Part shown: in pieces, positions 3,229 through 12,404 of the stretch
How positions within the stretch are numbered: the first letter of the stretch is position 1
Layout of the letters: the number at the start of each line of letters is the position of its first letter
Assembly: GCA_963666115.2 (NCBI GenBank)
Contig: CAXXET010000004.1
Coordinates: 192,001 to 256,000 of the forward strand
Direction of reading: 5' to 3'
From: Dehalococcoidia bacterium
GTDB taxonomy: Bacteria > Chloroflexota > Dehalococcoidia > UBA6926
Length of the DNA: 64,000 nucleotides
Notes under the pieces: model-generated
Told to the model about the DNA's origin: nothing
Databases searched by the model: none
What the model saw: the letters and a program-made list of their open reading frames with translations, nothing else
Translations under genes and position numbers: made by a program

Positions 3229-4440
3229 CTAATCGTCCCTGCGCAGCACCAGGCACGTGATGTCGTCATGCTGTGGCGCAGACCCCGCAAACTCTCGAAT
3301 CACGTCGATGACCGCGAGAGCGGTGCTCTCAGGATCGGTGGGCGGCGACGACGCGAAGTAGTCGCGAACGTGCTGGATGCCCATCGGCTCCTGTGCCTCG
3401 TTCATCGCCTCCGTCACGCCGTCCGTCACGAAGATCACGCTGTCGCCCGGCGCAAGGTCAACGCTGTTTTCCATGTAGTCATAGTCCGGCGCGACACCCA
3501 GGACAATTCCCTGCGTAAGCGCAAGCTCCTCGGATGACCCGTCCGGGTGGACCAGCAGGGGAGGATTCTCCCCGCCGCTCGCATACGTCAGCCGCCCGGA
3601 TCGCGGGTCGAAAACAGAATAGAGAACCGTGACGAACATCCCCGTTTCGTTGTCCTCCACCAGGAGGCTGTTCACCTCCGTCAGGACCTCCCCGGGATGC
3701 CCCTTGCCCACCGCCGCGCCCTTCAGCAGCGTGCGCGAGGACATCATGAACAGCCCCGCCGCCACCCCCTTGTCGGACACGTCCGCCACCACCAGCCCCA
3801 GGCGGTCGAACTGGAGCTTCATCAGATCGAAGAAGTCCCCGCCGATGTTTCTCGCGGGCCGCATCGTCCCATACACCGAGTACCCGTCGCCGGTCGGAAA
3901 GACCGTCGGCAGGATGGACTGCTGCATATTCTTCGCGACGTCCAGTTCATTCTGGATGGCGACCAGCCGGTCCCGCACGTTCAGCGCGTCCCGCAGCTCC
4001 TGGATATGCCGCAGCGTTCGGTCAATGGTCACGCGCAAATCGTCGAAGTCCACCGGCTTCGTGATGAAGTCAAACGCCCCGCGGTTCATCGCGGTGCGGA
4101 TATTCTGCATGTCCCCGTACGCGGAGATGATCACGGAGCGGACGTTGGGCTTTGCCTTCGGAATCTCCTGCAGCAGAGTAAGCCCGTCCATCTGCGGCAT
4201 GTTGATGTCGGACAACACCATGTCGATGTCGTCGTCCGCTTCCAATTCCTTCAGCGCTTCAAGCCCGTTGTGCGCGAACACGAAGCTGTAGCGGCCGGAC
4301 CGTATCTCGCGCCGCATCCGCTGCCGAACGAGCGGCTCAAGGTCGGGCTCGTCGTCAACGACGAGAATCTTATAGCTTTGTAGATCGTCCGGCAGCCCGT
4401 CCGCCTGCTCGGTCTCTTCGCTGGAAACGTCAGTGGTCAT
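3229..4440 (-). CDS. Response regulator receiver fused to SpoIIE/PP2C phosphatase (RsbU-like)
   Basis: REC motifs ILVVDDE, SDINMP, FITKP; PP2C motifs GGDFFD, VADVSDKG, TDGVTEA, DDIT. Start placed at ATG 4440 after a GGGGAG RBS. Confidence 0.92.
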   Translation of the reverse strand: MTTDVSSEETEQADGLPDDLQSYKILVVDDEPDLEPLVRQRMRREIRSGRYSFVFAHNGLEALKELEADDDIDMVLSDINMPQMDGLTLLQEIPKAKPNVRSVIISAYGDMQNIRTAMNRGAFDFITKPVDFDDLRVTIDRTLRHIQELRDALNVRDRLVAIQNELDVAKNMQQSILPTVFPTGDGYSVYGTMRPARNIGGDFFDLMKLQFDRLGLVVADVSDKGVAAGLFMMSSRTLLKGAAVGKGHPGEVLTEVNSLLVEDNETGMFVTVLYSVFDPRSGRLTYASGGENPPLLVHPDGSSEELALTQGIVLGVAPDYDYMENSVDLAPGDSVIFVTDGVTEAMNEAQEPMGIQHVRDYFASSPPTDPESTALAVIDVIREFAGSAPQHDDITCLVLRRDD

Positions 4441-6328: not shown

Positions 6329-8506
<2,178 letters not shown>

Positions 8507-8524
8507 CCCCAAAAGCCCCCCCCA

Positions 8525-8647
8525 CTCACCCTGAGCGCAGTCGAAGGGCACCCCCCTCCGTCACCCCCCCCCATTCCGTCATTCCCGCCCCCCTCCGTCA
8601 TTCCGGCGAAGGCCGGAATCCATCCCGTGCCCCGACAGGGCCACAAC
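8525..8647 (+). repeat. REP cluster upstream of GIY-YIG gene, including 57-bp direct repeat copy 1 (8591-8647)
   Basis: CTCACCCTGAGCGCAGTCGAAGGG, two partial CCGTCA heads, then the CCGTCATTCCGGCGAAGGCCGGAATCCA palindrome. Confidence 0.85.
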
Positions 8648-8672
8648 CCCCCCTACCTGCTAAAATCCCAAC

Positions 8673-8969
8673 ATGACCCAATCACGCATACCATGCGTCT
8701 ACGTCATGGCCAGCAAACCGAGAGGAACCCTGTACATCGGAACAACATCCAACCTTCCCGCCCGCGTCTGGCAGCACAAGACAAAGGCAACCGATGGATT
8801 CACGGCAAAATATGATGTCAATACCCTCGTCTGGTACGAAGTCCATGACACCATGAGCGCCGCCATCGAACGGGAGAAAGCCCTCAAGAACTGGAAACGA
8901 CTCTGGAAATTCCGCCTAATCGAAGAGATGAACCCAGAATGGCAGGACCTATACCAAACCATCCTCTAG
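8673..8969 (+). CDS. Stand-alone GIY-YIG nuclease
   Basis: VYVMASKPRGTLYIGTTSNLPARVWQHK, AIEREKALKNWKR, NPEWQDL. Confidence 0.95.
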   Translation: MTQSRIPCVYVMASKPRGTLYIGTTSNLPARVWQHKTKATDGFTAKYDVNTLVWYEVHDTMSAAIEREKALKNWKRLWKFRLIEEMNPEWQDLYQTIL

Positions 8970-8981
8970 CCCCGCCCCCCT

Positions 8982-9225
8982 CCGTCATTCCGCCATCCCT
9001 CCGTCATCCCCACCCCACCCCCGTCATCCCCACCCCACCCCCGTCATCCCCACCCCACCCCCGTCATCCCCACCCCACCCCCGTCATCCCCACCCCACCC
9101 CCGTCATTCCGCCATCCCTCCATCATCCCCACCCCCCCTCCGTCATTCCGGCGTAGGCCGGAATCCACCCCGTGGCCCGCTAGGGCCACAACACCCTCCG
9201 TCCACCCTGAGCCCAGTCGAAGGGT
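8982..9225 (+). repeat. 20-bp tandem repeat (CCGTCATCCCCACCCCACCC x5, 9001-9100) with variant units, 57-bp direct repeat copy 2 (9136-9192) and a REP (9199-9225)
   Basis: Read directly from the sequence; the 57-bp copies match at 52 of 57 positions. Confidence 0.93.
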
Positions 9226-9334
9226 GCACACCCCTCCCCCCAACCATCGTGCTATCCTAAGACAACCGTTCGCTACCAAAGAACCGAACCCAGGAGCCCA
9301 CAATGCGAGTCACTGCTAGCCTAGCGAGGCAATC

Positions 9335-10537
9335 GTGAAGGTTCACAAGACAATCCAGCGGCGAGTCTACCTGCGGCGCAACGGCCATGAGCGCCTCAAC
9401 GACGTGATGCGCAACTGTGCCGTGCTTTACAATGCCGCCCTGGACCACTGGAGGGGCGCATACAAGGCCACCCGCCACCAGGCAAAGCCCGATTCCGTCA
9501 ACTACTCCGCGCTGTCAGGGCAGCTGACCGGCGTTCGCGCGGACGACCCTCACGGATGGGGCGCATTGCACGTACAAGTCGGACGCGGAGTCATCAGGCG
9601 GATGGACAGGGCCTGCCAATCGTTCTTCCGGCGGGTCAAGGAGGGCACGAATCCGGGCTACCCGCGCTTCAAGGCCGGCGCCCGTTGGCGCACCATTGAG
9701 ATTGAGGATACGTCGCCCAATATGGTTAGACTCCTTGAAGAGCGCGGCAAGGCGTACGTCCGCGTCAAGGGCCTGCCGACGATGGAGATGCCTCCCCCAT
9801 CGGAAGAGGCCGTCGGCATCGACATGGGCGTGAACAAGCGCATGGCGCTCTCCGACGGCGGTTTCGCGCCGTTCCTGCTGCCCACACGCAGGCCGGACCT
9901 GAAGAAGAACAAGCGCCTGAAGCGCAAGATGGCGCGGCAGCGAGAGATTGCCCGGCACGGAAGGCAAAAGCGGCTGATGCCATCCAAGTCCTATAAGCAA
10001 ACCAGGCGGCAGTTGGCCGTATTGGAATACCGCGAGAAGATTCACAACCGGAACGAGGTTCACCGCGTGACGACCCACATCGTTGCCAGGTACGGCGTCA
10101 TCGCGGTGGAAGACCTCATCATCACGAACATGACGGCATCGGCGTCCGGCACGGTGGACGCGCCGGGGAAAGGAGTGTCGCGCAAACGTGGATTGAACCG
10201 CTCGATTCTCGAGCAGAGTTGGGGGCTGATGCGTCAGCAATTGTCCTACAAGGCAGAATGGGCCGGTAGAGACCTTGTTGAGGTTGCCCCCCACTACACC
10301 AGTCAGACTTGTTTGCGTTGCGGCGTCGTGGATGCCCGCTCCAGGAAAGGCGAGCAGTACGCTTGCCGGCACTGTGGATGGGAGTTCGACGCGGACGTGA
10401 ACGCGGCTGAAAATATCCGGCGAGAGGGCTTAAAAACCCTCGGACGGGAGTGTACTCCCCGTCGTGGCGGCCGGAGGAAGAACAAGGGGATACAAAATCG
10501 AAAGGCTCAACCGCCTCTCGATCCCTTCGCCACGTGA
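9335..10537 (+). CDS. tnpB: TnpB-family / miniature Cas12-like RNA-guided RuvC nuclease, CRISPR-adjacent
   Basis: YNAAL, GYPRFK, RuvC-I GIDMG, RuvC-II IAVEDL, KRGLNRSILEQSWG, zinc ribbon TSQTCLRC...CRHC, RuvC-III DADVNAAENI. Confidence 0.93.
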   Translation: MKVHKTIQRRVYLRRNGHERLNDVMRNCAVLYNAALDHWRGAYKATRHQAKPDSVNYSALSGQLTGVRADDPHGWGALHVQVGRGVIRRMDRACQSFFRRVKEGTNPGYPRFKAGARWRTIEIEDTSPNMVRLLEERGKAYVRVKGLPTMEMPPPSEEAVGIDMGVNKRMALSDGGFAPFLLPTRRPDLKKNKRLKRKMARQREIARHGRQKRLMPSKSYKQTRRQLAVLEYREKIHNRNEVHRVTTHIVARYGVIAVEDLIITNMTASASGTVDAPGKGVSRKRGLNRSILEQSWGLMRQQLSYKAEWAGRDLVEVAPHYTSQTCLRCGVVDARSRKGEQYACRHCGWEFDADVNAAENIRREGLKTLGRECTPRRGGRRKNKGIQNRKAQPPLDPFAT

Positions 10538-10551
10538 TAGCCGGGCATATC

Positions 10552-10719
10552 CCTGTACAAGGCAGGCAAATGCCCAGGCAGTACACCTGACGAACAAGCG
10601 GGCGTTCAACGAGATGCCTGTACAAGGCAGGCAAATGCCCAGGCAGTACACCCATAACAGGCTAGGGTGGGTGCCCTACCTCTCCCGTACAAGGCACGCA
10701 AACGCCCAGGCAGGCGGTG
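10552..10719 (+). CRISPR. Mini CRISPR array: repeat CCTGTACAAGGCAGGCAAATGCCCAGGCAGTACACC, two identical copies plus one degenerate copy, two spacers
   Basis: Repeats at 10552-10587 and 10617-10652 are identical; 10684-10713 matches the first 30 nt with 3 mismatches and then diverges. Unique spacers at 10588-10616 (29 nt) and 10653-10683 (31 nt). The repeat has dyad symmetry TGTAC..GGCA..TGCC..GTACA. Confidence 0.85.
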
Positions 10720-10813
10720 GCCACGACAATGCAGGGGCTCAAGACCCTAGCCGAGCGCAAGATTGAGGAGTAGTAATATCAAATTCCTGTGCGCCGCCCA
10801 GCCGAATAGCACC

Positions 10814-10840
10814 ATCATTCCCGCGCACGCGGGAATCTGG
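10814..10840 (+). repeat. REP-like palindrome ATCATTCCCGCGCACGCGGGAATCTGG
   Basis: ATTCCC-N8-GGGAAT core, as at 13199, 19924 and 25423. Confidence 0.8.
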
Positions 10841-10996
10841 CACTCATCCATGCTGATCATCACGAACGCAGATTGGCGACAGGAAGCTCAAGCCGCACAC
10901 AAGGGTGTCCGCCGTCAAGGAATACTGGGAATTGACGACTCAGTACGAGTGTGCTATTCTCACCTCAAAAGGGAAACGACGATCTAGGGGAAGACA

Positions 10997-11512
10997 ATGG
11001 CAAAGGGACTTCTGTTTGGGCTGGCGACATTCGTGGTAATCACCGTCGTCGCATGTGGTGGCCAGGCGACTCCCACACCCATCCCCACACCCGTCCCCAC
11101 AGCATTTGTCACGACAGTGGTTGTGACCGCCACTCCAACACCGACGCACGCATCCGAACCCATAATCGCGCAAGGGCAAGGCACTGAGTTTGTCTCCACT
11201 TCCATCGTACCGCGCGGGCATTACATCGCCACAGTTGAGGTTAGGACCAATCGAGAGGCCAAGTTCAGCTTGTCTGTGGATGACTTTGGCGATCTGAAAC
11301 ACGAAATAGAAATTGCCAATTCGAGCGCCGGAGGGCTGACTCAATATGATGAAGGCAATTCAGTGTGGGAGGCAACTGCACGTTTCGACACCTGTGAGTT
11401 GCCAGACGAGAAATTAGTGTTGAGGTCAACCGGCTTGGCGTCGGACGTCGAGTGGTCGGTCACACTAATTTGGCAAAAGGCGTGCGTCACGGAGCAGTCA
11501 AATGCTCAATAG
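10997..11512 (+). CDS. Hypothetical lipoprotein with Pro/Thr-rich linker
   Basis: Signal peptide ending VVACGG, then TPTPIPTPVPT linker; lower GC than its flanks. Confidence 0.75.
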   Translation: MAKGLLFGLATFVVITVVACGGQATPTPIPTPVPTAFVTTVVVTATPTPTHASEPIIAQGQGTEFVSTSIVPRGHYIATVEVRTNREAKFSLSVDDFGDLKHEIEIANSSAGGLTQYDEGNSVWEATARFDTCELPDEKLVLRSTGLASDVEWSVTLIWQKACVTEQSNAQ

Positions 11513-11570
11513 TGTCTTCGTGAAGTTCCCCGGTGGCCGAAACGGGGTGCTGGATCCCCCCGCCCCCCAT

Positions 11571-11660
11571 CTACGGCAGCGGCTCAATCTTGCCCAGCGG
11601 CTCCTGCCGCGTCCTGCGTTCCCAAGCCTCGTACAGTTCTTGTTGATACAGTTCAGGCAT
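11571..11660 (-). pseudogene. C-terminal fragment of a DUF4160-like protein
   Basis: ELYQQELYEAWERRTRQEPLGKIEPL resembles the DUF4160 C-terminus; it lies next to DUF2442, the usual partner. Confidence 0.55.
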
Positions 11661-11937
11661 TGGCGGGCGCGCCCTGCTCAACGAGCGCCAGTTCATCCAA
11701 GGTCTTCCCCGTGATCTCCATATAAAGCGCGTCCGCGCAAATATCGATGTCGTCGCCCCGCGCAATCGCCCGGTACTCAGTCAAGCGAACTGATTCAAAG
11801 AAAGAGCAGTCATTCCATGCGGCAAACACGCCCCTCCCCGCCATGTCGGACAGGTCAATCTCGCCGGACGCCCCATCATTGAAGCGCACCCAGATGCGGT
11901 AGCCCTCACGGGCCTCGACTGCTATCGGCTTGAGCAT
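11653..11937 (-). CDS. DUF2442 domain protein
   Basis: YRIWVRFNDGASGEIDL...DIDICADALY; GGAGG RBS before ATG 11937. Confidence 0.8.
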   Translation of the reverse strand: MLKPIAVEAREGYRIWVRFNDGASGEIDLSDMAGRGVFAAWNDCSFFESVRLTEYRAIARGDDIDICADALYMEITGKTLDELALVEQGAPANA

Positions 11938-11981
11938 ACTTGTCCTCCACGCGCAGTATACCAACGTTGGGGGACGCGGGG

Positions 11982-12404
11982 TTAGCTGTCTATCACATCG
12001 ATGTAGCCCTCATACCGCCGAAAGTCCGCCCCATTGAAGGTCAACAGCCGCCGCTCCCCATGCGCCAACATAGTCGCCACGATGTTGGCATCGTGAATCT
12101 GGCGCCCGCCGACCGGCACATCACGACACAAGTTGAACAGGAACTCCGAGACCACCGGGCCATCCTCTAGAACATCGAGACTTCCCAGTAGCTGCCGCAT
12201 GTCATCAAGTGCCTCTGTGAGAGTCATTGCAACCGGCCATACCTGTGGTCGTGTGACGACAGCCAGATATTCCCTCATAATCTGCCGACTGATCCGCAAC
12301 GGCTCCTGCCCGTGCATGACTTGCTCCAACAACGCGCTGGCTCGCCCATGGTCCGGAGCGCCCACGATACGTGCGTTTACCCAAATGTTCGTGTCAATGA
12401 ACAT
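11982..12404 (-). CDS. PIN-domain (VapC-like) toxin
   Basis: MFIDTNI, QIMREY, QIHDANIVATM, LLTFNGADF. Confidence 0.9.
   Translation of the reverse strand: MFIDTNIWVNARIVGAPDHGRASALLEQVMHGQEPLRISRQIMREYLAVVTRPQVWPVAMTLTEALDDMRQLLGSLDVLEDGPVVSEFLFNLCRDVPVGGRQIHDANIVATMLAHGERRLLTFNGADFRRYEGYIDVIDS

Follow-up and report, generated by a model that had tools for sequence, protein, structure and literature searches.

A TnpB-like nuclease gene followed by a short repeat-spacer array in a Dehalococcoidia genome: a probable minimal type V CRISPR-Cas locus

We analyzed a 64,000-nt stretch of DNA from a Dehalococcoidia bacterium (assembly GCA_963666115.2, contig CAXXET010000004.1, positions 192,001 to 256,000), here called the window, in which a gene for a TnpB-like RuvC nuclease is directly followed by a short array of repeats and spacers. 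With a probability of about 0.7, this locus is a minimal type V CRISPR-Cas system of a TnpB-like lineage, functionally closest to Cas12n and to the unclassified V-U groups. A preliminary description had proposed a very compact type V system, or an intermediate between TnpB and Cas12, that acquires its spacers in trans. Its account of the gene and the array stood up; its views on compactness, spacer acquisition and novelty did not.

The stop codon of the effector gene is separated by 14 nt from the first of two identical 36-nt repeats, and a degenerate third repeat closes the array, just as had been described. The two spacers (29 and 31 nt) are unrelated to each other, the period is 65 to 67 nt, and the repeat is partly palindromic. 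For the identical 36-mer pair, none of 100 shuffles reached even two matches. The preliminary description had considered that the same repeat might stand next to cas1 or cas2 elsewhere in the genome. The repeat is unique to this locus: it was not found again in the 2.07-Mb, nine-contig, 100%-complete assembly, even with nine mismatches allowed, and the genome has no cas1 or cas2.

The effector gene starts with GTG, ends with TGA at positions 10535 to 10537 (included in its coordinates in Table 1) and encodes 400 aa. The protein exceeded the curated cutoffs of three TnpB family hidden Markov models (HMMs): PF07282, Cas12f1-like_TNB (E 2.1e-23, 82.7 bits against a cutoff of 26.3, residues 296-361); PF01385, OrfB_IS605 (E 1.7e-11, 44.8 bits against 30.5); and NCBIfam NF040570, guided_TnpB (185.8 bits against 100). 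The RuvC residues D163, E259 and D354 and the four cysteines of the zinc ribbon, all pointed out before, are invariant in an alignment with the 14 nearest homologs; in ISDra2 TnpB, the residue aligned with D354 is the second D of DRDENAA. In the protein database, 3945 of 7741 candidates were relatives at E <= 1e-20, the best of them just 51-54% identical. Among solved structures, the best match was RdCas12n (9j09, E 2e-30), covering the C-terminal half (residues 159-371), followed by an AI (artificial intelligence)-designed nuclease (9yyg, E 9.2e-26) and ISDra2 TnpB (E 1e-20). Structures of LaTranC were remote (9jfo, E 1.3e-4; 9jfq, E 1.9e-4) and matched in the RuvC/TNB part alone. The top PADLOC models were a Cas12f model (1.1e-52) and Cas12u4 (2.5e-50). 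Since six relatives, with or without arrays, scored alike on these two, the PADLOC and NCBIfam models do not decide membership, and we rejected them as a test for Cas12f or Cas12u4.

The linkage of gene and array is kept among relatives, which is the arrangement of type V systems in the V-U sense. We compared 17 distinct homologous loci of at least 190 bits with available DNA (the duplicates L027 and L030 and the truncated L032 were dropped). Five of them, which represent four other lineages at the level of genera, show a repeat-spacer array directly downstream of the gene and in its orientation, with 2 to about 16 repeats and spacers of 29 to 32 nt. Locus L123 (genome G170) has three 36-nt repeats with a period of 66 nt, the third being degenerate. 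Locus L124 (G370) has two repeats, both differing from the L123 form; this array was picked out by eye, since the two repeats are too dissimilar to pass the strict scan. Locus L121 (G367) has 12 perfect 37-nt repeats and, distal in the array, about four more with a 1-nt deletion, and its spacers of 29 to 30 nt are all different. Locus L122 (G124) has two repeats with a period of 65 nt, and L008, from a SAR202 metagenome-assembled genome (MAG), has five clean repeats and at least one degenerate repeat with a period of 61 nt. The distal repeat is degenerate in L123, L122 and L008, as it is in the window; the polarity from which the array had been read in the direction of the gene thus recurs in relatives. 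With different spacers at the same position in homologs, the link between a CRISPR-type array and a TnpB-derived effector that the preliminary description had drawn from one locus holds for several.

It could be argued that gene and array are chance neighbours, with a TnpB-type gene that landed or was left next to an orphaned piece of some unrelated CRISPR array. The window array is very small and is accompanied by no cas genes, and Altae-Tran 2023 (PNAS, PMC10691335) leaves room for the insertion of tnpB beside arrays already present. Such an accident would hardly produce the same gene-then-array layout in five of 17 loci, always downstream and co-oriented. In G367, the gene-linked repeat is confined to the L121 locus (12 of 12 matches), and both its sequence and its spacer length are unlike those of the array linked to Cas1, which lies about 450 kb away and has an unrelated repeat and 36- to 40-nt spacers. 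The window repeat likewise occurs nowhere else in its genome. We consider chance proximity to be very improbable.

Spacers were found to vary between species and strains while the repeats stay, as is characteristic of type V arrays. L123 and L124 belong to two species of the same genus and are syntenic: the gene and 480 nt upstream are 91% identical and the downstream flank aligns, and the two arrays have no spacer in common. For the window locus itself, contigs from four public metagenome runs (X1 to X4) were placed on the sequence. Run X1 contains a strain with a gene about 95% identical to that of the window. A contig of this run (depth 14.8, shorter side 65 nt) joins position 10588 to position 10687 via 33 other letters and reads repeat 1, one different 31-nt spacer, and a terminal repeat that starts with the canonical CCT. 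The terminal repeat is kept in this strain, with one listed difference. The inferences from X1, and those from X3 below, come from one contig each, and metagenome contigs can be chimeric and drop rare variants. The preliminary description would have yielded to homologs that never carry arrays or to spacers invariant among strains; we found arrays in relatives and a changed spacer in X1.

The changed spacer also bears on the notion that the three 36-nt copies are no guide array at all, being instead protein-binding or repetitive extragenic palindromic (REP)-like structural repeats, for example subterminal transposase sites. The palindromic character of the repeat, a neighbourhood rich in dispersed REP-like repeats with a 20-bp tandem repeat, and the 22-bp tandem repeats that relative L009 has downstream in place of an array are all consistent with this notion. 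However, the X1 strain swaps the spacer and keeps the repeats, and both the period and the unique 29- to 31-nt spacers agree with the arrays of relatives. The window repeat is unique to the locus, while the REP-like elements are multicopy in every genome of the genus, and the genome has no transposase to bind such copies. There is only a very slight chance that the copies are structural repeats.

The X1 contig over positions 10687 to 10837 has 24 differences in 151 nt, one of them listed inside the terminal repeat, compared with about 4-5% in the gene. The flank past the terminal repeat (10720-10837) is far more diverged than the gene, which suggests a recombination boundary at the end of the array. 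Within residues 156-274 of the effector, the 19 listed differences from the X1 strain comprise 10 synonymous and 9 nonsynonymous changes, a rough sign that suggests some purifying constraint on the gene.

Matching spacers to targets and deriving a protospacer-adjacent motif (PAM), as the preliminary description had envisaged, gave nothing for the window spacers but succeeded in the relative L008, whose effector is 39% identical to that of the window. Of the five L008 spacers, three have matches of 28/29 to 29/30 elsewhere in that MAG: two short, near-identical contigs, a site beside a DnaA_N/HTH protein, and the 3' end of an 833-aa open reading frame (ORF) that has a weak Replic_Relax match and adjoins a Fic gene. 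These target contigs are plasmid-like. All three protospacers are preceded by AA; at the local AA frequency of 0.038 to 0.047, three such flanks would arise by chance with a probability of about 6e-5. In L214 (about 2698-2744; contig C37 of G758), the 16 nt after the protospacer of L008 spacer 4 agree at 13 of 16 positions with the first half of the repeat, which could be chance or a hint of a spacer capture route.

These targets have to be weighed against a further explanation, namely that the TnpB has been domesticated and that its array consists of omega-RNA units, not of immune CRISPR units: the scaffold's 3' end and the guide would have been duplicated in tandem, the units would not be renewed, and the array would serve a host role (gene control or homing) or none. 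The array adjoins the stop codon, which is precisely the place at which an omega-RNA ends, and the genome is devoid of cas1, cas2 and cas4. Altae-Tran 2023 (PMC10691335) proposes that segments of the omega-RNA are serially duplicated to give arrays, and the L123 repeat does resemble the sequence that follows the stop codon in a mobile relative (one gap and 18 of 19 aligned bases identical; p = 0.003 among 48 tests). In G367, one of about 15 L121 spacers (L121 2923-2951) is identical at 29 of 29 positions to its own chromosome (L210 6499-6527), inside a putative cyclase-family gene (PF04199) and with the 5' flank CCC, not AA; the missing PAM would explain why this self-match is tolerated. On the other hand, units that are not renewed do not fit spacers that differ wholly between syntenic loci and between strains while the repeats and leader are the same. 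The narrow range of spacer lengths, the AA-flanked matches to plasmid-like DNA, and the lack of any match between the window spacers and their own genome also speak for guides that serve as CRISPR spacers. When the window repeat was compared with the transposon tails of 12 relatives without arrays, no significant likeness emerged (p >= 0.09). An omega-RNA array therefore appears unlikely, and we favor the minimal type V CRISPR-Cas system.

The preliminary description had noted that tnpA, serine recombinase, cas1, cas2 and cas4 are missing from the window. This absence extends to the whole genome, in which neither Y1 TnpA (PF01797) nor serine recombinase (PF00239) was found. The effector gene is present in a single copy, and with no TnpA of either type in the genome the locus is immobile; it is not an IS200/IS605 or IS607 mobile element. 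Among 21 congeneric genomes, 20 do not have the gene and the other one has a 50%-identical fragment; gene plus array were found in none of the 21. In the neighbourhood, only katG upstream is syntenic, and the remainder consists of dispersed REP-like repeats. Since cas1, cas2 and cas4 are absent from the genome, the suggested acquisition of spacers in trans has no candidate machinery there and is impossible in it. G170, G370 and G124 likewise have no Cas1.

The relation of array-bearing to array-less members was analyzed with a quick 51-row tree from IQ-TREE, from which L027, L030, L032, 93 of 120 listed proteins, and all loci below 190 bits were left out, except for L011 (149.5 bits) and five outgroup rows. 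The window protein is sister (support 100) to a clade of proteins, P0001-P0014, that are 51-54% identical to it. The array-bearing rows are scattered: the six of them need five changes on the tree, a number as low as that in 200 of 500 label shuffles, and the well-supported branches force at least two array gains or losses. The L123 and L121 repeats are clearly related to each other (p < 0.0005). Tree and repeats would be compatible with independent array birth and with repeated loss alike. Genome G712 contains a relative in four copies of 392-396 aa (L125, L129, L130 and L131), without arrays and with conserved ends, TATATACTTYACGCC on the left and TTTTGTATATAA on the right about 50 nt past the stop. 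On these sequence features, it is a still-mobile member of the clade to which the window protein belongs.

A broader proposal can be made for this one Chloroflexota TnpB clade, in which arrays may be repeatedly born or lost among mobile relatives, with complete spacer turnover from one sister species to another and among strains about 95% identical, and with Cas1-independent renewal of guides. We regard this proposal as doubtful. The turnover occurs in genomes without cas1, cas2 and cas4 (G367 has only the unrelated Cas1-linked array), so that the renewal, if it takes place, would be independent of Cas1, for example by recombination or capture at repeat-like sequences. If the proposal is true, the clade would be a living series of the transition from TnpB to Cas12, with the window locus as one snapshot. 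Apart from this proposal, the locus and its relatives add a natural case, resolved at the level of strains, of a transposon nuclease turning into a CRISPR effector: the window has an immobile TnpB-like gene with two spacers, its relatives run from mobile copies that have no array up to one with about 16 repeats, and spacers are replaced without adaptation genes in the genome. This bears on how arrays of the V-U, V-F and V-N types obtain their spacers. The clade also provides candidate small nucleases of about 437-455 aa, with AA as their likely motif. The most interesting remainder of the analysis is the spacer turnover in genomes without cas1.

The 400-aa size of the window effector, which had been taken for a very compact design, is due to an in-frame deletion of 111 nt (37 codons) from a protein of about 437 aa. 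In the alignment, the window protein alone is without about 38 residues between MEM and AVGIDMG, which are present in 14 of 14 nearest homologs. The corresponding segment of P0007, a full-length relative, lines up with about residues 147-180 of ISDra2 TnpB, the strands directly before RuvC-I. By the domain name and boundaries used for the ISDra2 structure, this segment is part of the WED domain. The window copy has an incomplete WED domain, with the last strands gone. A contig from run X3 (record 19, depth 5.5) matches 9735-9791 with three differences and 9783-9835 with one difference, and has 102 extra letters between the two matches; the 111 nt, or 37 codons, are thus present in a near-identical relative. 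In run X1, a 113-nt contig covers 9762-9874 without a gap, indicating that the deletion allele is present in a second data set too, and loose ends at 9807/9808 show longer alleles in that run as well. The odds that the window copy is still active we put at somewhat less than even; otherwise, it would be a recently disabled remnant.

In the mechanism that we propose, gene and array would be transcribed jointly from left to right, as suggested by the 14-nt gap and the lack of a promoter-like site ahead of the array. A promoter and terminator scan of 9100-11050 returned one promoter-like site at 10932-10960, 3' of the array, and one terminator-like site on the minus strand, neither of which exceeded shuffles. 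A scaffold RNA may extend across the 3' end of the ORF and run into repeat 1, by analogy with TnpB and Cas12n. The tail KRAIQPALLPMD, which is nearly invariant in the aligned sister clade P0001-P0014, and the RNA fold of 10380-10587 (z = -2.2) would both fit such a scaffold. An Rfam scan of 8000-12000 gave a chance psaA match alone (E 0.74). The scaffold and a handle derived from the repeat would present each 29- to 31-nt spacer to the single RuvC nuclease, which would cut matching DNA beside a short 5' motif, probably A-rich (AA) as in L008.

Several results weigh against the assignment to a type V CRISPR-Cas system. The array has just two spacers. These spacers match nothing in their own genome (longest exact match, 15 nt) or in 21 congeneric genomes (best E 0.19); no protospacer was found in phage records (best E 3), and exact 22-mers of the two spacers gave 0 and 0 matches in IMG/VR. 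No anti-repeat was identified, a scan of RNA duplex energies at four loci yielding GC-rich noise at no common position. The absence of cas1, cas2 and cas4 from the window and from the whole assembly leaves no visible means of spacer renewal, and the deletion in the WED domain may abolish the activity of the window copy. Of the close homolog loci, 12 of 17 are array-less, including the four copies in G712, and the family HMMs do not tell members with arrays from those without. The preliminary description had suggested a check for the window repeat downstream of close homologs; arrays are found there, but the window repeat has no detectable similarity to the repeats of other lineages (p >= 0.2). 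Finally, whether the sister clade P0001-P0014 bears arrays stays outside the 17-locus comparison: a search for its DNA in 401 genomes of the class, 401 of the phylum and 301 of the class to which G757 belongs, as well as in JGI metagenome contigs and IMG/VR, found none.

Other repeats were seen at homologous loci. The same scan of about 85 more distant loci detected no CRISPR-like array downstream. Among later loci, mostly IMG/VR relatives, 70 ORF matches were scanned and a few had repeats; L135, L151, L190 and L192, distant homologs on viral contigs (IMG/VR, 25-32% identity), have direct repeats of 22-40 nt at 66- to 77-nt spacing 3' of the gene. At L009, a Caldilineaceae homolog, about six 22-bp head-to-tail repeats (TGTTCTACCCTATTGCG...) occupy 2410-2560 in place of a repeat-spacer array. 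L010, a Dehalococcoidia homolog with an ORF of 576 aa, has six repeats of 60-nt period within the gene (3808-4140), which encode in-frame 20-residue repeats with a VASDVVESP motif between RuvC-I and the linker. At the broken homolog L011, a 67-nt tandem repeat 1 kb away agrees with the core of the window repeat at 17 of 21 bases; we rejected this likeness, because equal or better scores arise by chance across 1.9 Mb of homolog loci. The L121 array, searched against phages and plasmids, gave short GC-rich matches alone (best E 0.3 and 0.02).

Upstream of the effector gene, window positions 8673-8969 contain an ORF for a 98-aa GIY-YIG nuclease (PF01541, E 5e-16), followed at about 8990-9170 by about seven copies of a 20-bp tandem repeat, CCGTCATCCCCACCCCACCC. 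REP-like elements flank them at about 8517-8660 and 9130-9245, with many copies of 80-96% identity in every genome of the genus. A contig from run X2 connects 8991 to 10815 through 12 other letters and leaves out the 1823 nt that comprise tandem repeat, gene and array. Because its shorter side measures just 20 nt and lies in REP-like sequence, this join was set aside; it may reflect either an artefact or a variant with an empty site. A 794-nt contig from run X4 (record 30) matches 10172-10553 at 98%, is unlike the window on both sides and ends 2 nt into repeat 1; it was taken as a mosaic relative and likewise set aside. The features of the locus are listed in Table 1.

Table 1. Features of the effector gene and repeat-spacer array, in window coordinates
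Feature	Start	End	Strand	Basis
Effector gene, TnpB-family/Cas12-like RuvC nuclease	9335	10537	+	ORF list, Pfam, NCBIfam
Junction of the 111-nt (37-codon) in-frame deletion; 9-nt stretch TGGAGATGC fits both sides	9783	9791	+	
RuvC-I aspartate D163 (GIDMG)	9821	9823	+	Invariant column, alignment with 14 nearest homologs
RuvC-II glutamate E259 (AVEDL)	10109	10111	+	Invariant column, same alignment
Zinc ribbon (TNB domain), CxxC...CxxC, C326/C329...C344/C347	10310	10375	+	Invariant cysteines; PF07282
RuvC-III aspartate D354 (DADVNAA)	10394	10396	+	Invariant column, same alignment
Low-complexity C-terminal tail coding region and 14-nt gap; putative scaffold (omega/tracr-like) RNA site	10420	10551	+	Inference
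CRISPR repeat 1, 36 nt	10552	10587	+	Repeat search
Spacer 1, 29 nt	10588	10616	+	Sequence
CRISPR repeat 2, 36 nt, same sequence as repeat 1	10617	10652	+	Repeat search
Spacer 2, 31 nt	10653	10683	+	Sequence
Degenerate terminal repeat, 27/36 identical (9 substitutions)	10684	10719	+	

TranC is reportedly a TnpB-like protein that uses a CRISPR array born from a split omega-RNA. The window locus is like it in concept; the sequence of LaTranC (PDB 9JFO) is remote, and membership in TranC is not supported by sequence. The likeness to ISDra2 TnpB (PDB 8H1J, 8EXA) is broader. Residues 21-400 of P0007 align to residues 21-373 of TnpB (E 6e-22), and the domain order, the RuvC triad, the zinc ribbon and a guide encoded directly 3' of the gene are shared. 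In contrast to ISDra2, the window locus has no TnpA and no second copy, an array replaces the single transposon end, and the last WED strands are gone.

Cas12n (type V-N, formerly V-U4; RdCas12n, PDB 9J09/9UDI; AcCas12n) has been described structurally, 9J09 being the RdCas12n structure; that work (PMC12216341) gives a 5'-AAN PAM, a trans-activating CRISPR RNA (tracrRNA) that overlaps the 3' end of the ORF, and hosts in Actinomycetota. It provides the best solved match to the window protein, and Cas12u4 is the second-best PADLOC model. Both systems have a single small effector with RuvC and a zinc finger and a small downstream array; the low-complexity C-terminal tail of the window protein may correspond to the disordered tail of Cas12n, and the AA at three of three protospacers of L008 recalls 5'-AAN. 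However, the RdCas12n match covers the C-terminal RuvC/TNB half, while the N-terminal half of P0007 aligns with ISDra2 TnpB. Array-less mobile TnpBs score equally on the Cas12u4 model, and the tree contained no true Cas12n. The named records of the window lineage are Chloroflexota MAGs, whereas the hosts given for Cas12n in PMC12216341 are Actinomycetota.

Altae-Tran 2023 (PMC10691335) infers about 50 independent origins of Cas12 from TnpB and defines 40 groups, V-U6 to V-U45, with TnpB-sized effectors, a downstream array alone and no cas1, cas2 or cas4; these groups have short arrays and few spacer matches and are interleaved in the tree with mobile TnpBs. The 2025 classification repeats the picture of a TnpB-derived type V without adaptation genes, and TranC and Cas-delta are reported to extend the series from TnpB to Cas12. 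The preliminary description thus overrated the novelty of the locus, as these transitions, the V-U groups, Cas12n and TranC are already in print. Type V systems that derive from TnpB, have mini-arrays downstream and lack adaptation genes are an established, published kind (V-U, Cas12n, TranC). Since the phenomenon is in print and the window copy is probably impaired, the locus is comparative material and not a new kind of system. The clade of the window shows exactly the same picture as the V-U6 to V-U45 groups in PMC10691335, and its lineage may be among them.

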